From Candidatus Dojkabacteria bacterium (GTDB lineage: Bacteria > Patescibacteriota > Dojkabacteria > GCA-002793355): 64,000 nucleotides of DNA. The first letter of the stretch is position 1. Each line of letters starts with the position of its first letter. Below the pieces are notes generated by a model. The model was not told where the DNA came from. It ran no database searches and worked only from the letters and a program-made list of their open reading frames with translations. This document shows positions 11,699-61,675 of the stretch, one piece after another. Both the position numbers and the translations under genes were made by a program. The DNA is taken from positions 843,627 through 907,626 of the forward strand of contig CP129477.1 of assembly GCA_030583825.1 (NCBI GenBank), read 5' to 3'.

Positions 11699-11756
11699 TT
11701 CTTGGATGGAACGAAACTTTTTAAAACAGTTCTTGTTTTGAAAAGATGAGTGACTA

Positions 11757-11828
11757 TCCAGAGGATAGGATTTGAACCTATGACCAAGAGTTTTACAGAC
11801 TCCTGCTCTACCGCTGAGCTACCTCTGG
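11757..11828 (-). tRNA. tRNA, anticodon apparently GUA (Tyr) but with a short (type I) variable loop
   Basis: The reverse complement folds as a cloverleaf: acceptor CCAGAGG/CCTCTGG, U8, D stem GCTC/GAGC, anticodon stem GGAGT/ACTCT with loop CUGUAAA (U33, A37), variable loop UGGUC, T arm ATAGG-TTCAAAT-CCTAT, discriminator A. 72 nt, no encoded CCA. Confidence 0.6.
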
Positions 11829-11900
11829 ATGACGTATTTTACGATGGATGGAGGCTTTTGTAAAGATTATTCAGTAAGTGTCCTCATTAGTAGAACGCTT

Positions 11901-21613: not shown

Positions 21614-22432
21614 ATGACACAGAGCGAAACAGATACTCTGCCTTCACAAATGGAGCAGCAACTTTCAAAAGGAGTTATGTACATTGTCGCAACGCCAATC
21701 GGTAACTTGCAAGACATGACATTACGGGCAAAAGATACGCTTTCTAATGTTCACACAATTATTGCAGAAAACCCTCAAGTGACTCGAAAATTGCTTACAC
21801 ATTTTGGTATTTCTACTCCTATTATCCCCTACCGTGAAGATAACCACGACCGAGTTATTGGCAACATAATCACAACACTAAAAGACGGACACAGTATTGC
21901 ACTTGTGTCAGATGCGGGAACCCCGGTGATTTCTGATCCTGGTATTAAGTTGTTGCGAGAGTGTTATGCACAAAATATTCCAGTTATCCCAATTCCAGGT
22001 GCTTCTGCAGTAACTAGCGCAGTCTCAGTTTTTCCTGTTCCAAGCCCGAAGTTTGTGTTTCTTGGATTTTTTCCACGGCAGTTTTCAGAGTTTAAGAAGT
22101 GGTTTGAGCAGTCTCAGGACTTTATTCTCAAAGAGAAAGTATCATATGTTGCGTTTGAGTCTCCACATCGAATACGAAAGACGCTTGAAGGATTTGTCGA
22201 ATTTGCAAAAGACCTTTCTGAAAAATACACTCTCAGAATTGGTCTTGCGTCGGAAATTTCGAAACTTCACGAAACATTTTTATGGTCTGCACCAGATGCG
22301 TTGCTCTCGTATAGAGAAAATGGCTTTTCCTTAGAAAAGGGCGAATACACAATTGTGGTATCATTTGTAAAGAATGGAAAACAACAAGATGACAACAGCG
22401 AAACAGAATACGACGAAGACAGTCGTGATTAA
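21614..22432 (+). CDS. rsmI: 16S rRNA (cytidine1402-2'-O)-methyltransferase
   Basis: MYIVATPIGNLQDMTLRAKDTLSNVHTIIAE is the tetrapyrrole-methylase-like RsmI N-terminus. Confidence 0.8.
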   Translation: MTQSETDTLPSQMEQQLSKGVMYIVATPIGNLQDMTLRAKDTLSNVHTIIAENPQVTRKLLTHFGISTPIIPYREDNHDRVIGNIITTLKDGHSIALVSDAGTPVISDPGIKLLRECYAQNIPVIPIPGASAVTSAVSVFPVPSPKFVFLGFFPRQFSEFKKWFEQSQDFILKEKVSYVAFESPHRIRKTLEGFVEFAKDLSEKYTLRIGLASEISKLHETFLWSAPDALLSYRENGFSLEKGEYTIVVSFVKNGKQQDDNSETEYDEDSRD

Positions 22433-23174
22433 GCTTGGGGGATCACTTCTCTCTCCGTACGATAAAGCGATGTCGCAGCTTTGCTCTGCACAGATTCCTT
22501 TTGACGTGGACTACGCAAATAACCTGATTCAACAGCTTGTCCGTGCTCCAATGCGGGTAGTATTACTTGTTGGTGGAGGTTTCTTAAACCGCTGGTATGT
22601 GAAACAAATGAAGGCGTCGTGGAACATTGAAGAAGGAAATACAAATGACCTCCATACTATCGGCATTGCTGCGTCAGTGATAAATGCGAGTACATTTAAG
22701 ATATTGCTACATAATGCCCTTGGCGTGAAACAACGACTTTTTCCAGAAGTTTTAAAGTTTCACATGTATGAGCACCTAGATGAGCTACGTGACCAACTTG
22801 AGGCTTCTCAATTTATTGTTGCATCGGGTTGGAAACCAGGTCACAGCCATGATTTGGATGCAGTTATGTTTGCGGAGTACTTTGGTGAAACAACGTTTTA
22901 CAGCCTAAAGAATATTGATGGCGTATATACCGCTGATCCAGAGAAAGATTCCACAGCGAGACGTCTTGCTTCACTTACATGGGATGAATATTTCTCAATT
23001 ATTAAAGTCACAGAACATTTGCCAGGTGCCAACTACCCTGTTGATCCTATTGCAGCAAAAGAATCTAAAGAAAAAAATATTACTTGCTACGTTATGAGTG
23101 GAACAGAGTTTTCCGACGTGGAACGAGTTATTCATGGACAAATACCAGTCCAGGCAACGCGAATTTCAAACTAA
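22374..23174 (+). CDS. amino-acid kinase family protein, uridylate kinase-like
   Basis: TVVIKLGGSLLSP, VVLLVGGGFLNRWYV and a DAVMFAEYFGE...IDGVYTADPEKD block fit the AAK/UMP-kinase fold. Overlaps the rsmI 3' end by ~59 nt. Confidence 0.5.
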   Translation: MENNKMTTAKQNTTKTVVIKLGGSLLSPYDKAMSQLCSAQIPFDVDYANNLIQQLVRAPMRVVLLVGGGFLNRWYVKQMKASWNIEEGNTNDLHTIGIAASVINASTFKILLHNALGVKQRLFPEVLKFHMYEHLDELRDQLEASQFIVASGWKPGHSHDLDAVMFAEYFGETTFYSLKNIDGVYTADPEKDSTARRLASLTWDEYFSIIKVTEHLPGANYPVDPIAAKESKEKNITCYVMSGTEFSDVERVIHGQIPVQATRISN

Positions 23175-24166: not shown

Positions 24167-24478
24167 TCAGTTGGAGGAAATAGTTTTTCTGACGCAGTAG
24201 CTTTGCTCTAAAGCATCTAAAATAATTTCCCACATCTCCGTTTCTGCGCGGTTGTTTGCTTTTTCGAGTTGCTCCTGTGCAATATTTAGTAAGGCTTCGG
24301 GTGTGGAATTACTTTCCGAATAGTGAAGAATAGTAACTTCATGCTCACCTGAGTAACTAAATAGGATACACACGATTGCAAGAAGGCAACCGTTTTTACA
24401 GAGTTTGACCGCTACATCATATTCTATGTCCATTGCGTCTGCGATGGCTTCGGCGGACATATCAGGGAAGAACAACAT
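24167..24478 (-). CDS. hypothetical protein
   Basis: ORF only. Confidence 0.25.
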   Translation of the reverse strand: MLFFPDMSAEAIADAMDIEYDVAVKLCKNGCLLAIVCILFSYSGEHEVTILHYSESNSTPEALLNIAQEQLEKANNRAETEMWEIILDALEQSYCVRKTISSN

Positions 24479-24619: not shown

Positions 24620-24913
24620 ATGTTAGTCCAGATATTGCAATACCCAGCTATCGCGCTCTTAAAGGTGGCAATGTGGGTAGTTGCCCTTACGCAGAACGCG
24701 CATAGTCACTCTGTCTCCGGTAATATGCTTGACTGGGATGATAAAACGACTCGCGTTTTCTGGGCAGTAATGGTGATATACATTGTGGCGATAGTTGTAA
24801 TATCATTGTTCCTTTCCGCATTCAATCTGTGGTCGGGAATCGCCTTCTTCATTGTTATGGTTGCGAGTAGTTTTGCGTTATTCGGCACGCCGTCCGCGTC
24901 ATCCAAACAATAA
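24620..24913 (+). CDS. small hypothetical membrane protein (97 aa)
   Basis: Strong RBS aagggaggttcgtATG, a -10 TATAAT at 24580-24585, two predicted TM helices, and a terminator hairpin downstream. Confidence 0.4.
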   Translation: MLVQILQYPAIALLKVAMWVVALTQNAHSHSVSGNMLDWDDKTTRVFWAVMVIYIVAIVVISLFLSAFNLWSGIAFFIVMVASSFALFGTPSASSKQ

Positions 24914-24933
24914 CGCTCTCTCATGACCAAGAC

Positions 24934-24975
24934 GGGTCGAAGCTTTTTCCCACGAATCGCTTCGACCCACTTTTC
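24934..24975 (+). terminator. Rho-independent terminator-like hairpin
   Basis: GGGTCGAAGC-N15-GCTTCGACCC (10-bp perfect stem) followed by a T-rich ACTTTTCC. Confidence 0.5.
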
Positions 24976-25137
24976 CTTATCCTATTTATCAAAACTATTA
25001 CACTAGATTTGCTCTTCTCTACTCATTCGGTAACCGAAATACCGTCCAATTATCGGGCACAGATTCTCCCCTATCCCTTTCTTTTATGCTATAATCCATG
25101 GCAACTGCCTTGAAGAGATAATATCAAAAGGGGGAAC

Positions 25138-26745
25138 ATGGCAGATATGCAATCTTTAGAAACTAAGTCGGCACAACCGGTGCAAAACAATATAGGTGAC
25201 CTCGAAGGTATTTTAGAGGCGCGTCCTCCTTTAGGAAATCGCCATTCTTCTTCACGAAAACCCAACGAAGCCGCAACACTCAACTATTTTGACCTGAACA
25301 ATGAAGAGGCTCGTGAGCGAGCCTTACACATACAGGAATCACTCCGCAGGCAACATTTCCATAAAGTCCACACAATGTACGAAGCATTTGAGACAGAACC
25401 AGGTGCTGTAAACGCTTTGAGACGAGATACTGTTAATAACATTGCTGCAATGCAGTGGTTTCCTAGGCACTCTCAAGAAGCACAAGAATACTTCGAGGAG
25501 ATGGTTCCAGACGAAGATCTTCGTAAACAAATTCAGCTTCATTACAGTGAATTCTTCACATATGTTCATAGAGAAGTCGCCCGAGCAGTACTTTCGCCTC
25601 GAAAGTGTGAAACAATGTTTGCCGACAAAGGACTCTTGAGCAGAATTAGAAAGAACCTTCCAGCGCATCTTATTCCTGCTGCAGAAGAACTCACAGAACA
25701 GCTTATTGATGACTACTATCAACAGCTAAACAACCTCATTGACGAAGAAAAGCTCGCAAAATATGAACAAAATGTTTGTTACGAGCTAGATTGGTACGAT
25801 GATGGCTATAGCCTACACAAGAGAAAAAGAAATATTATTTTGCTTAACGGCCCAGTTGGCTCAGGAAAAGGAACGACGCTTGAACAATTAGAAGCTGAAG
25901 CTGTAGAAACAGGAACTGCCGGTATTGCCGGACGTGGTGGACAATCAAAAGAAAAACGCGATAAATTAGAAGGTGGCCCAAACAGATACGATCGTTGGGA
26001 ATATGTTTCCGGCGGACTTGACCGTTCACGCAAAAAGCAGAGACGAATTCCTGACCGCGTTATGCGTATGTGGCTTGCAATGGAACTTATGCAAAAGCGT
26101 GGAGAGCTTGATGCAGAAGGAAAATTCGACGAGCCTATTTATATCTCGGGTTATCCTCGCGAGGTTGATCAAACAAAACTCTTTGCGCATCTTGACCAGG
26201 AGCAAGTTGTTTCTGTGTATATGGAAATTTCTGAACAGGAAGCAGCAACGCGAACGCTAAGCCGCATGATTGAGCAAAGTGTCGCAACTGCAATGGATGC
26301 AAGAGCTATTGAAAATGCTGAGCTTTCTCGTGCAGAAAAAGATGCAAGACTTGCAAAGTTGGAATATTACCGCGGAGATGACTTTAAATCTTTGGACTTT
26401 TCAAATGCTCCAGAAGTTAGACAGATGATCTTGCGGTTTAATAAAGACATGCTTGCTGCGTTGCAAATCGTAGATCCACACGGGAAAATAGAGTTGAAAA
26501 AACTACAGGAAAAAATTAAAAAAGCAATTTTTGAGAATCACAAGGCAGCGATTGAACAGCTATTGCTGGCACGTGGAGACGAAGGTCATAAAGGAGAAGC
26601 TCGATATCACCTCGACATGCGCAACAAAAGGTCTATTATTGAAGCATCCGAGTCAATGGGTATTGAAACAATTATCGTTCAATGTGACGGTAAAGCCCCA
26701 CCGCAGGTAACTGAAGAAGTGGCACAATATGTCCGCGCAGCCTAA
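25138..26745 (+). CDS. hypothetical protein (535 aa) with an embedded adenylate/NMP-kinase-like P-loop domain
   Basis: NIILLNGPVGSGKGTTLEQLEAE is an NMP-kinase-type P-loop. Then VSGGLDRSRKK (compare AK ISTGDMLR) and PIYISGYPREVDQTKLF (compare AK GFLLDGFPRT). These are flanked by a ~230-aa N-terminal and ~170-aa C-terminal extension with no recognisable motifs. Confidence 0.45.
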   Translation: MADMQSLETKSAQPVQNNIGDLEGILEARPPLGNRHSSSRKPNEAATLNYFDLNNEEARERALHIQESLRRQHFHKVHTMYEAFETEPGAVNALRRDTVNNIAAMQWFPRHSQEAQEYFEEMVPDEDLRKQIQLHYSEFFTYVHREVARAVLSPRKCETMFADKGLLSRIRKNLPAHLIPAAEELTEQLIDDYYQQLNNLIDEEKLAKYEQNVCYELDWYDDGYSLHKRKRNIILLNGPVGSGKGTTLEQLEAEAVETGTAGIAGRGGQSKEKRDKLEGGPNRYDRWEYVSGGLDRSRKKQRRIPDRVMRMWLAMELMQKRGELDAEGKFDEPIYISGYPREVDQTKLFAHLDQEQVVSVYMEISEQEAATRTLSRMIEQSVATAMDARAIENAELSRAEKDARLAKLEYYRGDDFKSLDFSNAPEVRQMILRFNKDMLAALQIVDPHGKIELKKLQEKIKKAIFENHKAAIEQLLLARGDEGHKGEARYHLDMRNKRSIIEASESMGIETIIVQCDGKAPPQVTEEVAQYVRAA

Positions 26746-27547
26746 AGACACCGAAATTCGGTATTACCACCCTCCTGAGAAAGACTTTGAGCCGGTTGCT
26801 CTTGGACGCGAAGTTTTGCCGGGTGGAAAATTCGCAATAATTACGACTGTAGAATGTCCAGAAGAAGTGAAAGACACAATTCGCGCCAATGCCGATGAGA
26901 ACGAAGGAATGTTTCTCGCAGGTGATTTTATTGGCTCAGCATCCCGTCGAGTTGTAACCCGATTAAACTCACGCGAAGAAAGACCCCATGCAATCGCTGT
27001 TGTAAAAAGAAAAGCACAAGTGCCGCAGGATGGATATATGCGAAGGTTCACAACTTTCAGCTTAGTTAACGAGATTAGAATGGCCCATGCTACCAATGAT
27101 ATTATTGATGCAGAAGGATTGCGTGACTATTCCGTAATGTATCAGGATCAAGAAGTTGATATTCAGTTTGACGTGCAAGTGCCTTTTGGTGGTGTATATG
27201 GAATTACCCCGGAAACCCGAAATCAGCGTTATGGATTGTTTCAGTTTCATTCTGGAACTTCTGTCCGCGATGAAGTGGCAATGTCTTACGGGTGGAATCA
27301 CCTCACACAGGAAGAACGTTTGCTCTATGGAAACCTTTTTCATGGACAGTTAACAAATCTTCATGTCGCGGCTGCTTCAAAATACGGGATTTATACACAT
27401 GATTTAGGAGTTCACCAGCTATTGTATAACGAATCACGTAACGATGGAAAAACAAAGTACCAACTCACGATTCTTGATACTGAAGAATTTTACCCTTGTG
27501 AGCCTTTTGTTCCAGGTGGACTGTTTCCTGTTATATGTTTTCTTTAG
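26729..27547 (+). CDS. hypothetical protein (272 aa), translationally coupled to the upstream kinase-like gene
   Basis: Its start overlaps the upstream stop by 17 nt. No recognisable motif. FHGQLTNLHV...LTILDTEEF has a faint resemblance to the catalytic loop/DFG region of a kinase-like fold, which is weak. Confidence 0.4.
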   Translation: MSAQPKDTEIRYYHPPEKDFEPVALGREVLPGGKFAIITTVECPEEVKDTIRANADENEGMFLAGDFIGSASRRVVTRLNSREERPHAIAVVKRKAQVPQDGYMRRFTTFSLVNEIRMAHATNDIIDAEGLRDYSVMYQDQEVDIQFDVQVPFGGVYGITPETRNQRYGLFQFHSGTSVRDEVAMSYGWNHLTQEERLLYGNLFHGQLTNLHVAAASKYGIYTHDLGVHQLLYNESRNDGKTKYQLTILDTEEFYPCEPFVPGGLFPVICFL

Positions 27548-28842: not shown

Positions 28843-30504
28843 TTAAGATTTTAGCTTTGAAAGAATAATTTTTGAATAATCACTCTCTTCTGATTTTTTA
28901 ATTTCCTGCAATACTGTTTCTAATACGCTTGTATCGCTTACTTCCAATGCATCGTGAATTTTATCGAGCAACTCGAAGCAAAGTTTCAGAAATTGGGATT
29001 CTTTTTCAGTAGAAAATGCCAGTGTGACTGAATCATTTTCTACATTGAGAATTCCTGCTTCTGCGAGTAACGAGTAAATGCGCATTGTGCTGTTTCTATA
29101 TGCGCGGAGTGACGAGCTTGTCCACGCATCATAGCGTCGCAATTCATGCGCTGTATATCCTACAACTGTTTCATGAAGTTTCTCAGGTGAGAGTTGTCCA
29201 TTCTTATCCAGAATGTGTAAAGCTGAGAGCGCGTTCAAATCTGCTCGTAACTCTTCGAGTTGCTGAGAATATACGTTTGGTATTGCTGGCGCAAAATCTC
29301 CAATATTGTAAATCGTGTGACCAAACTCGTGTGGAACAACGTGATTCAACATCTGATCCTCTGCAGTAACGTACTGCAATTCTTTTTCAACTCCGTCCCC
29401 AAAAACTTTTTTGAACAATTGCTTTGCTTTTTCTGTTCTTGCTTGTGATGACTGATAGTCAAGATAGATTTTTACACCCTTTTCCTGTTTTACTTCTGTT
29501 CGATTTGGAATACTCTGCCCTGCAAATTTGAAGTGAACGCTCATTCCTGTTTGAAACGGTAAGTATGACACACATGCAAGTGAATTTCGCAGTGCTTGTA
29601 ATCCTTTTTTACTGAATTCGTTATCTCGAACTGAATAATACGCATCTAATATCTGCTGAGACGCTTTAAAAGATGCTTGTGCTTGCTCATGTGATTCATC
29701 CGTAAATCGGAGGGAAAAGTCAGGAATTATTTTTACACCTAGAGGGTCGCCATAGTGGTTCTCAATGTCGTGAACAATCTGAATCCAGAAACTTGTGTTC
29801 ATCCAGTACTTGTCCACTTCAGTCCAGGCCTGCTCTAGTTCTTCTATGCTGGTTAATGCAAGTGCGCCTCTGTAATGTTTAAGATACGTAACCATCGCCT
29901 GCTCCTCTTCGTTGAGTGTCATGTGCTGTGTCGCAGCAAAAAGATTGTCAAAGTCACGTAAAATCGGGTCAAGCTCTTGTGCAAACTTTTCGGCGTATGG
30001 AATCTGCTGCAATGTTTCGTAGGAAACATTTTCCTCGCTATTGTGGGTAATGACGGTGTAACCATTGTCAAAGCCTTTTTCTGTAATAAATGAGTGAAGT
30101 TTGTCCGGATTTGTCTCTAGCTCCGCTTTAAGAAATTGTGATGCAGGACTTGAAACCATTTCTTGAATCCATGCCTTGTAATATGCAGCATAGTGAAAAG
30201 AAATTTCGAGTGAGTACATGACTAAAATTGTTTCAAACGGTGTCAGTTGCAAGCGATTTGCCTGGATTTCCTCTCGAATTCCATCGCGTACGGTTTGCTG
30301 GTATTCGTTTGCAAGATCAAGTAACGCGTAAAAAGTTTCAGTCCCTTCTGTAATTCCTGCGAAATCTGATTTTGCAGATGCGCGAAATGCCTGGTCTTGT
30401 GATACTCCTTCGGGAAGCATTTTCATTGATAAGACTTCTTTCCATTTTTCGCTTTTTTGTGAAACAATGTTTTGAAGGTGTTTCACGATTTCGATATGTG
30501 TCAT
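28843..30504 (-). CDS. putative zinc metallopeptidase (gluzincin, HExxH)
   Basis: VVPHEFGHTIYN (HEFGH), then LEELRADL ~20 residues downstream as a candidate third ligand. 553 aa. Family not resolved. Confidence 0.45.
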   Translation of the reverse strand: MTHIEIVKHLQNIVSQKSEKWKEVLSMKMLPEGVSQDQAFRASAKSDFAGITEGTETFYALLDLANEYQQTVRDGIREEIQANRLQLTPFETILVMYSLEISFHYAAYYKAWIQEMVSSPASQFLKAELETNPDKLHSFITEKGFDNGYTVITHNSEENVSYETLQQIPYAEKFAQELDPILRDFDNLFAATQHMTLNEEEQAMVTYLKHYRGALALTSIEELEQAWTEVDKYWMNTSFWIQIVHDIENHYGDPLGVKIIPDFSLRFTDESHEQAQASFKASQQILDAYYSVRDNEFSKKGLQALRNSLACVSYLPFQTGMSVHFKFAGQSIPNRTEVKQEKGVKIYLDYQSSQARTEKAKQLFKKVFGDGVEKELQYVTAEDQMLNHVVPHEFGHTIYNIGDFAPAIPNVYSQQLEELRADLNALSALHILDKNGQLSPEKLHETVVGYTAHELRRYDAWTSSSLRAYRNSTMRIYSLLAEAGILNVENDSVTLAFSTEKESQFLKLCFELLDKIHDALEVSDTSVLETVLQEIKKSEESDYSKIILSKLKS

Positions 30505-57823: not shown

Positions 57824-57905
57824 TGCCGAAGGAGGGACTCGAACCCTCACGCCTTTTGGGCAACGGATTTTAAGTCCGTCGTGTCTGCCATTCCACCACT
57901 TCGGC
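57824..57905 (-). tRNA. tRNA-Leu (anticodon UAA)
   Basis: The reverse complement GCCGAAG...CTTCGGC-A folds as a cloverleaf with anticodon stem-loop ACGGA-CUUAAAA-UCCGU (U33, UAA, A37), a long variable arm TGCCCAAAAGGCGTGAG, and a T arm GGGTTCGAGTCCC. 82 nt. Confidence 0.75.
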
Positions 57906-61481: not shown

Positions 61482-61603
61482 GAGGTGACAGCGGGATACC
61501 CAGCTACGCTTCTCTCGCGAAGCTCGAGTGAGAACCATTCACTCTATGAAGGCATATTCACCGAAATATCACCTCGCTACGAGCTACTTTGCAGCTCCTA
61601 CCG

Positions 61604-61675
61604 AGGTGACAGCGGGAATCGAACCCGCGAATAGCAGTTTTGCAGACTGCCGCCTTACCACTTGGCCATGTCACC
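61604..61675 (-). tRNA. tRNA-Cys (anticodon GCA)
   Basis: Reverse complement: acceptor GGTGACA/TGTCACC, anticodon stem GCAGT/ACTGC with loop CUGCAAA (U33, GCA, A37), T arm GCGGG-TTCGATT-CCCGC, discriminator U (typical of tRNA-Cys). 72 nt. Confidence 0.8.

Follow-up and report, generated by a model that had tools for sequence, protein, structure and literature searches.

Two overlapping open reading frames (ORFs), ORF1 and ORF2, were investigated in a stretch of 64,000 nucleotides (nt) of a Candidatus Dojkabacteria genome (assembly GCA_030583825.1, contig CP129477.1, positions 843,627 to 907,626), here called the window. ORF1 encodes a protein with an adenylate kinase (AK) fold and ORF2 a member of a rare, unannotated family. 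Together they are a genuine, rare and uncharacterised module, the function of which we infer from conserved motifs and gene neighbourhoods. The positions of both ORFs and their 17-nt overlap (Table 1), given in a first-pass annotation made from the letters of the window, were confirmed in the sequence. Both are real genes, and their codon usage resembles that of the host. Scored in frame, the log-likelihood margin from codon usage was 0.218 for ORF1 and 0.182 for ORF2; for 31 long training genes of the window it was 0.117-0.345. ORF2 was coding-like in each 90-codon segment over its full length, and the GC by codon position of ORF1 and ORF2 was typical for coding sequence. Across the region GC content was flat, with native composition and codon usage. 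A record identical to ORF2 is deposited at NCBI as 'MAG: hypothetical protein QY314_03955 [Candidatus Dojkabacteria bacterium]', which places the organism among the Patescibacteria.

Table 1 Features of the ORF1-ORF2 locus; positions are those of the window (aa, amino acids; NMP, nucleoside monophosphate; pLDDT, predicted local distance difference test)
Feature	Position	Strand	Description	Basis
Terminator-like hairpin with T-run	24924..24939	+	3' of the upstream small ORF	consensus scan
Candidate -10 box	25090..25095	+	perfect TATAAT hexamer, 43 nt 5' of ORF1 start	sequence
Shine-Dalgarno of ORF1	25127..25134	+	strong, AAAGGGGG	sequence
ORF1	25138..26745	+	535 aa; N-terminal helical extension, then adenylate/UMP-CMP-kinase-fold core with two insertions	
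ORF1 N-terminal extension	25138..25821	+	aa 1-228; 90-228 helical, 1-89 with pLDDT <50	AlphaFold2 model
ORF1 strand and P-loop	25834..25875	+	IILLNGPVGSGKGT, aa 233-246	family alignment
ORF1 remodelled NMP-site segment	25900..26007	+	aa 255-290	invariant columns, phmmer to AK1, hhalign
ORF1 equivalent of AK DG(F/Y)PR...Q	26137..26172	+	IYISGYPREVDQ, aa 334-345	alignments, motif table
ORF1 helical insertion, LID region	26275..26622	+	~115 aa, aa ~380-495	hhalign gaps vs E. coli Adk; Foldseek
ORF1 canonical AK C-terminal strand-helix	26662..26742	+	IETIIVQCDGKAPPQVTEEVAQYVRAA, aa 509-535; strand 511-515, helix 521-534	aligned to E. coli Adk; AlphaFold2 model
ORF1/ORF2 overlap	26729..26745	+	17 nt; ORF2 ATG at 26729, ORF1 TAA at 26743-26745	
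ORF2	26729..27547	+	272 aa; member of rare unannotated family (about 28 known members, 250-297 aa)	
ORF2 AVVKRKAQ	26996..27019	+	aa 90-97; K93, K95 conserved; candidate ATP-binding Lys strand (putative role)	alignment
ORF2 LVNEIRM	27062..27082	+	aa 112-118; family HE(I/M)RT; E115 near-invariant; N114 replaces family H	alignment
ORF2 QRYGLFQFHSGTSVRDE	27224..27274	+	aa 166-182; family RYGIFEYxxGxSxRxE; kinase-hinge-like	alignment
ORF2 HDLGVHQ	27398..27418	+	aa 224-230; D225, G227, Q230 invariant; catalytic-loop-like (D-x4-Q)	alignment
ORF2 LDTEEF	27473..27490	+	aa 249-254; candidate metal-binding motif	alignment

ORF1 and ORF2 look like a two-gene transcription unit, because of the signals in the 5' region and the convergent SHMT gene, the 3' end of which lies 22 nt behind ORF2. 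The 224-nt intergenic region 5' of ORF1 contains the hairpin, the TATAAT hexamer and the Shine-Dalgarno sequence. The hairpin is likely the 5' boundary of the unit, with terminator-like matches in the window not more numerous than in shuffled sequence. No good -35 box was found for the hexamer, which was not reported by the promoter scan. From the 17-nt overlap the first-pass annotation had deduced a coupling of both genes. This conclusion is not supported, since overlaps and short spacers are common in this genome: among 27 same-strand neighbour pairs, five show an overlap and another nine a spacing within 25 nt (14/27 in all).

In ORF1 the three-layer P-loop fold of NMP kinases was found, with its CORE, NMP-binding and LID regions. 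An AlphaFold2 model was built from the four-sequence family alignment, and its best Foldseek matches were AK5, AK1 and 1uky (probability 1.0, TM 0.55-0.60, target-normalised). With hhalign, residues 232-533 were aligned end to end with residues 1-214 of E. coli Adk, P-loop on P-loop and SGYPR on DGFPR, and QCDGKAPPQV was aligned with the C-terminal segment of Adk. Residues 290-376, GYPREV.Q included, were aligned to human AK1 by phmmer. The Pfam scan gave sub-threshold matches to generic P-loop families and to ADK (PF00406; 12.9 bits, cut-off 26.8), and in NCBIfam adk was sub-threshold as well (E 1.5e-5, 24.7 bits, cut-off 168). Because these scores lie below the curated thresholds, ORF1 is best classed as a divergent derivative of the AK fold and not as an annotated Adk. 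An NMP-kinase core within a larger protein had been proposed before, and the Foldseek result and the adk matches bear this out.

Conserved in the ORF1 family are the P-loop, ETGT, R286, SGYPR...Q, R372/R376, R489..D493 and CDGKxP. In the Walker-A motif GPVGSGKGT (residues 238-246) all four members agree at seven of nine positions (G238, P239, G241, G243, K244, G245 and T246). ETGT (257-260) aligns with STGD of AKs and is followed by a conserved Gly-rich loop of about 20 residues (AGIAGRGG...) and the invariant RYxRW. The arginine of this last motif, R286, is placed by phmmer beside R44 of AK1 and is likely its equivalent. The insert of about 35 residues previously described after the P-loop is real, but it is better described as about 20 residues splitting the TG...R NMP motif. 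In SGYPREVDQ (337-345), S337, G338, Y339, P340 and R341 are invariant and Gln follows the motif in 4/4 members. R341 corresponds to AK R88/R97 and Q345 to the adenine-reading Gln. R372, R376 and R489-Y-H-x-D493 of the LID region are invariant and RGDD (412-415) is present in three of four members; some of these residues may stand in the active site. The family conserves K244, R286, R341, Q345, R372/R376 and R489..D493, positions with a catalytic role in AKs, and this argues for an active phosphotransferase.

The remaining mass of ORF1 is located in the N-terminal extension and in the LID-region insertion. For residues 1-228 no match was found in Pfam or NCBIfam; the extension is partly conserved in the relatives P0002 and P0003, and according to the model residues 1-89 may be disordered. 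Foldseek alignments with about 310 columns for kinases of about 190 aa are consistent with the location of the insertion. A motif-less C-terminal extension, as assumed in the first-pass annotation, is not present. The last 27 residues are the canonical AK strand-helix, and the extra mass is the internal insertion of about 115 aa. The short-type adenylate and UMP/CMP kinases (AK1, AK5, yeast Ura6; PF00406, TIGR01351/TIGR01360) have a length of about 190-220 aa, compared with 535 aa for ORF1. In contrast to these enzymes, ORF1 carries the helical extension of about 228 aa, its NMP motif is split (ETGT...RYxRW for STGDxxR) and the helical insertion replaces the LID. Furthermore, it scores far below each curated family cut-off. 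Among 5.8 billion clustered proteins only its own cluster and three relatives with 50%, 47% and 25% identity were detected, and a scan of the genome collection with the ORF1 family found no loci. ORF1 as an ordinary, widespread housekeeping kinase, the alternative considered at first, does not agree with three relatives among so many proteins. ORF1 is a strongly decorated new variant of a well-known enzyme fold.

ORF2 appeared to be an orphan in a word-indexed protein search, which returned ORF2 itself only. This was overturned by an exhaustive phmmer search of 1.84 billion representatives, with which 22 relatives of 26-38% identity (E 3e-20 to 1e-7) were identified. They are 201-297 aa long, plus one 117-aa fragment. 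Six more were added by a profile search, so that about 28 members are known. All of them are unannotated, and those looked up are metagenomic singletons or near-singletons. No member matched Pfam, NCBIfam or PADLOC, and no meaningful match of the family profile and consensus to PDB sequences was obtained. Thus, the earlier statement that ORF2 belongs to no described family stands, and membership in a characterised family, the other alternative considered, was not found in these libraries. A literature search revealed no description of the ORF1 family, the ORF2 family or their recurrent pairing. ORF2 represents a rare family, undescribed in the libraries and papers searched, and the same is true for the pairing.

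Locus scans of metagenome and viral collections with ORF2 alone found nothing; with the tighter ORF2 sub-alignment A3 two loci were found in each of two collections. For organism names, the records give 'Patescibacteria group bacterium', Candidatus Woesebacteria and one 'uncultured Pseudomonadales', and taxonomy within the candidate phyla radiation (CPR) is recorded for three members only. Going by the records, this very small family is restricted to uncultured metagenome lineages. The Pseudomonadales label belongs to the record of locus L004/L010 (CAYOQI010000002.1, 'uncultured Pseudomonadales bacterium'), which carries the family member P0030. Glycosyltransferases, sortase, cohesin/dockerin-like genes, NUDIX and GIY-YIG are found at L004. 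Given this gene content and the otherwise CPR-only distribution of the family, the label is doubtful. The protein P0027 (882 aa) matched residues 61-87 of ORF2 with nine separate stretches (E 1.6e-7). It is repeat-protein-like, was judged to be no family member and was excluded from the ORF2 alignments.

The order of motifs in the ORF2 family is CPxx, SRR, (V/I)xK-x-K, HE(I/M)RT, VQxPxG, RYGIFEYxxGxSxRxE, GGWNN, GLEPWDLGxHQ and ILDTEEY. W189, D225, G227, Q230 and E252 are invariant in the alignment, and R74, K95, E115, F171, S178, R180, D250, T251 and E253 are near-invariant. A kinase-loop-like sequence HGQLTNLHV...LDTEEF had been noted in the first pass. LDTEEF is indeed among the best conserved motifs, but HGQLTNLHV is part of a variable helix and shows no conservation; in the alignment it is HDLGVHQ that forms the invariant motif resembling a catalytic loop. 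K93 is followed after about 22 aa by E115, then by FEYxxGxS and, about 50 aa further, by D225-x4-Q230. D250-T-E-E stands 25 residues after D225, and the beta-hairpin predicted between them is taken from a low-confidence model.

Protein-kinase-like (PKL) enzymes contain a strand Lys, a Glu, a hinge, a D-x4-N loop and an acidic metal-binding motif, which is IDxE in choline and aminoglycoside kinases. The motif order and spacing of ORF2 look protein-kinase-like. By motifs only, ORF2 resembles the PKL small-molecule kinases, namely the aminoglycoside/choline kinases (HxDxxxxN ... IDxE) and the Kdo/WaaP-type sugar kinases. Several members of the ORF2 family are located in envelope-glycan gene clusters, where sugar kinases of the PKL fold also occur. 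In contrast to PKL kinases, Gln takes the place of Asn at loop position +5, no obvious Gly-rich loop is present and only about 20 residues follow D-T-E-E, so that most of the normal C-lobe would be missing. Sequence or profile similarity to PKL kinases was not detectable.

The neighbourhoods of ten informative, distinct ORF2-family loci were recovered. In four of them an AK-like P-loop gene lies immediately upstream of the ORF2-family gene on the same strand. Besides the window, with the 535-aa ORF1 and the 17-nt overlap, these are L006 (= L007 = L013; 414 aa, 11-nt gap), L009 (368 aa, 11-nt gap) and L011 (= L012, Candidatus Woesebacteria; 411 aa, 0-nt gap). In a neighbour-joining tree of the ORF2 family the four linked members are found on three deep branches, and a single derived clade holds five of the six unlinked ones. 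Because AK-like and ORF2-family genes adjoin in 4/10 loci on three deep branches, a real functional coupling is suggested. The idea of a functional pair, put forward in the first pass, gains support from this neighbourhood check.

The three partners outside the window (alignment A4) belong to an unannotated family and are mutually homologous (25-30% identity, E 7e-26 to 4e-31). They carry the motifs FLHGPSGxGK, (S/T)GDxxR, DGxxR and R(D/F)DD. With hhalign, A4 matched Adk with a probability of 86% (E 4.6e-6), a PDB profile search gave adenylate kinases (E 6e-4), and adk and cmk were sub-threshold in NCBIfam. Like ORF1, these proteins are AK-derived with a very large insertion in the AK core, between core and LID-end motif, and are encoded directly upstream of, and tightly spaced with, the ORF2-family gene. 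Unlike ORF1, they lack both an N-terminal extension, their P-loop beginning at residue ~13-19, and a Gly-rich insertion, and the canonical Arg of GDxxR is kept. ORF1 may be a very divergent orthologue of the A4 partners or an independently recruited AK derivative. Under both readings, AK-fold and ORF2-family genes adjoin much more often than chance would give. The context of L009 (DegT, NUDIX, AAA_28, formyltransferase) differs from that of L006 and L011 (pilin genes, PEGA, UbiA, GT4). For this reason the two genes appear to travel together and to have been moved as a cassette.

Two further observations were made at these loci. At L009 (1-5409) the pair ends a same-strand cluster of GFO/IDH/MocA oxidoreductase, DegT aminotransferase, NUDIX, AAA_28 (NadR-like P-loop) and formyltransferase. 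This cluster resembles nucleotide-sugar modification and may hint at the substrate class. At L015 (337-2473) the ORF2-family gene shares 11 nt with the end of a gene for a 451-aa metallo-beta-lactamase (MBL)/beta-CASP protein with a Pfam match to Anti-Pycsar Apyc1, a tightly coupled partner unlike the AK-like one.

With some reserve, we favour the explanation that ORF1 and ORF2 form a two-enzyme phosphotransfer module, in which the AK-type ORF1 and an ATP/Mg-dependent transferase of a new family, ORF2, would act on one metabolite pool. The two genes would be the operon for this module, which has been found so far only in metagenome sequence of uncultured bacteria; where a taxon is recorded, the carriers are CPR/Patescibacteria. 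ORF1 would be catalytically intact and most likely move the gamma-phosphate of ATP onto an NMP or onto another phosphorylated acceptor closely related to NMPs. Its remodelled NMP site and extra domains could adapt the kinase to a particular acceptor or partner, and the extra domains may act in docking or regulation. For ORF2, from a family of ~265-aa proteins, the ordered invariant motifs Lys / Glu / FEYxxG / D-x4-Q / D-T-E-E fit a transferase that depends on ATP and Mg and has an active site of protein-kinase-like (or ATP-grasp-like) type. Acting on the same pool, both enzymes could catalyse successive phosphorylations, e.g. from nucleoside or sugar to monophosphate and diphosphate, or the AK-like enzyme could recycle AMP or ADP made by ORF2. 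Either option would suit an organism living on scavenged nucleotides. Patescibacteria depend on scavenged nucleotides and NMP kinases, and some of them lack one of these kinases, such as Gmk (bioRxiv 10.64898/2026.06.21.733656; PMC5113843). A more specific version, an undescribed cassette seen to date only in metagenome sequence of CPR/Patescibacteria type, in which ORF2 founds a new minimal protein-kinase-like (or ATP-grasp-like) family and the AK partner supplies, extends or recycles its nucleotide substrate or product, is doubtful. If true, organisms unable to make nucleotides could use the cassette to salvage or activate the nucleosides, nucleotides or envelope sugar precursors that they scavenge.

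Several results weigh against the two-enzyme module. For ORF1, the scores lie far under the curated adk thresholds, and the confidence of the model is moderate only (mean pLDDT 57.7; core 70-84). For ORF2, no match was found in Pfam, NCBIfam or PDB, family consensus included, and the kinase-like fold is putative. In hhalign comparisons with kinase sequences and mini-profiles (NPTII, APH(3')-Ia, APH(3')-IIIa, Hph, PKA, CDK2 and PknB), the ORF2 profile reached a probability of <1% against aminoglycoside phosphotransferases (APH) and eukaryotic-type protein kinases (ePK). GFP, TEM-1 and CAT gave similar values, and the positive control ePK-APH reached 1.8%, so that this comparison has no power. 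The hinge-like segment of ORF2 was set in register with YMVMEYVAGG of PKA, without significance. The single-sequence AlphaFold2 model of ORF2 (pLDDT 29.5) is unusable. Furthermore, no AK-like gene was detected by tblastn in the fetched flanks of six of the ten loci (L004, L008, L014, L015, L016 and L018). ORF1 and A4 are colinear over about 277 columns, but weakly (hhalign E 1.6e-4, probability 50%), and they resemble each other no more than either resembles ordinary Adk, which leaves a common origin of the pairing unproven. Finally, none of the three ORF1 relatives is accompanied by ORF2. L001, the 50% relative, is located on a 129-kb contig with the gene order of the window: RsmI-type methylase ... 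AA_kinase, lipid kinase, small ORF and ORF1 homologue, continued by the convergent SHMT, DUF7897, FolD and Mur ligase. Here, the ORF1 homologue ends 19 nt before SHMT. At L002 (47%) a convergent gene fragment ends 28 nt further on, at the position of SHMT in L001. L001 and L002 are Dojkabacteria-like syntenic loci. L003 (25%) has no same-strand downstream gene. Because ORF2 is missing from all three, ORF1 can probably work without it, and the fixed unit assumed in the first-pass annotation does not hold. In a DNA alignment about 800 extra bases are found in the window between ORF1 and SHMT, flanked by only short chance repeats. ORF2 was apparently either lost from the nearest relatives or never present in them.

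These relatives, with the next gene convergent and 20-29 nt away in L001 and L002, also favour the strongest rival explanation, a coincidental adjacency, which we regard as rather unlikely. ORF1 would be a self-sufficient, lineage-specific kinase, which possibly covers a missing NMP-kinase activity in a narrow Dojkabacteria clade. ORF2 would be an unrelated accessory gene placed by chance or by insertion between ORF1 and SHMT, and the overlap would reflect a compact genome, as do the overlaps and very short spacers of 14/27 pairs. At other loci the ORF2-family gene overlaps or adjoins an upstream gene of unrelated type, for instance MBL/beta-CASP (L015) and DUF3131 (L016), and orthology of ORF1 with the other AK-like partners is not demonstrable. 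However, three other independent loci carry an AK-like P-loop gene directly upstream, though such genes are rare per genome. With a handful of NMP-kinase-like genes among ~1000 genes, we estimate a fourth case by chance at about 1 in 200. If ORF1 and A4 are independent AK derivatives, the convergent association would argue even more strongly for a functional link.

The two-enzyme module also has to be weighed against a non-enzymatic role of ORF2, as client or regulator of an AK-fold ATPase, comparable to the action of Fap7/AK6 on ribosomal protein S14. In this case ATP would be spent by the decorated AK-like protein on loading, remodelling or phosphorylating its partner ORF2. In favour of this view, no enzyme family was matched by ORF2, and the large non-catalytic insertions of the AK-like partners could be protein-binding surfaces. 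But the invariant residues of ORF2 are polar or charged (D225, Q230, E252; K95, E115, D250) and stand in short, sharp motifs, a pattern typical of active sites rather than of surfaces for interaction. Moreover, the majority of the family has no AK-like neighbour, and ORF1 retains the NMP-site residues R341 and Q345, the equivalents of which are not known from Fap7-type ATPases. Thus, a client or regulator is improbable.

A nucleotide-modifying or -depleting module of anti-phage defence or signalling, as suggested in the first pass, would agree with the general architecture of a P-loop kinase-like protein and an unknown partner, with a sub-threshold PADLOC match to mad8 that covers only the P-loop region of ORF1 (E 0.0024) and with the Apyc1 match of the gene overlapped at L015, but it is very improbable: PADLOC-DB 2.0 gave matches in 0/22 ORF2-family members and none significant for ORF1, homologues of ORF1 or ORF2 were absent from 50,697 phage records and those of ORF2 from 72,556 plasmid records and viral contigs, the flanking genes have housekeeping functions and keep their order in L001, flanking repeats and mobile-element signs are missing, and both GC and codon usage are those of the native genome. 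Neither a defence system nor mobility is indicated at the locus, and it has no bearing on phage defence.

Zeta/epsilon toxin-antitoxin systems were considered and rejected. Like ORF1-ORF2, the Zeta/PezT toxin is a P-loop kinase-fold protein encoded beside a partner gene, and zeta/PezT are weak structural neighbours of ORF1 (Foldseek probability 0.4-0.8, TM 0.26-0.29), whereas AKs match much better. The partner in these systems is a small antitoxin encoded upstream. In contrast, ORF2 has 272 aa and enzyme-like conserved motifs and is located downstream; no Zeta_toxin Pfam match was found in ORF1.

CPR/Patescibacteria represent a large part of bacterial diversity, are unable to make their own nucleotides and contain many unannotated genes. 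The AK fold of ORF1 tolerates a split NMP motif, a LID replacement of about 115 aa and an N-terminal domain of about 228 aa with the catalytic residues kept, which makes it of interest for the evolution of a textbook enzyme. The ORF2 family, with about 28 members among ~15 billion proteins, active-site-like motifs and a recurrent AK-like neighbour, offers a testable entry to unknown nucleotide or phosphotransfer metabolism in CPR bacteria.

The locus is flanked by genes for RsmI, an archaeal-type UMP-kinase-like protein, a YegS-type lipid kinase, SHMT, FolD and a MurF-like ligase. The 'UMP-kinase-like' neighbour (22374-23174, +) has the AA_kinase fold and is nearest to archaeal-type PyrH (119.6 bits, equivalog cut-off 158). 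As annotated, the gene begins 59 nt inside the RsmI gene, and the real start may be further downstream. Within the 64-kb window no canonical adk was found. At threshold, tRNA genes for Tyr-GTA (11756-11829), Leu-TAA (57824-57905) and Cys-GCA (61603-61675) were detected there, and no other Rfam family.

Two small ORFs are located between the lipid kinase gene and ORF1 (24167-24478, -, 103 aa; 24620-24913, +, 97 aa). For both of them no family match was found and the coding statistics are weak. The 97-aa product resembles a membrane protein, and L001 and L002 have small ORFs of 93 and 116 aa at the corresponding position. Between SHMT and FolD a 553-aa protein is encoded (28843-30504, -), which matches DUF7897 (Pfam E 2.9e-22) and has a sub-threshold match to NCBIfam 'invasion protein CiaB' (E 1.8e-22, 79.6 bits, cut-off 250). 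It contains an HEFGH-like motif (VVPHEFGHTIY) and is found at the same position in L001. A CiaB-like putative metalloprotease inside a folate one-carbon cluster of a CPR bacterium is odd.

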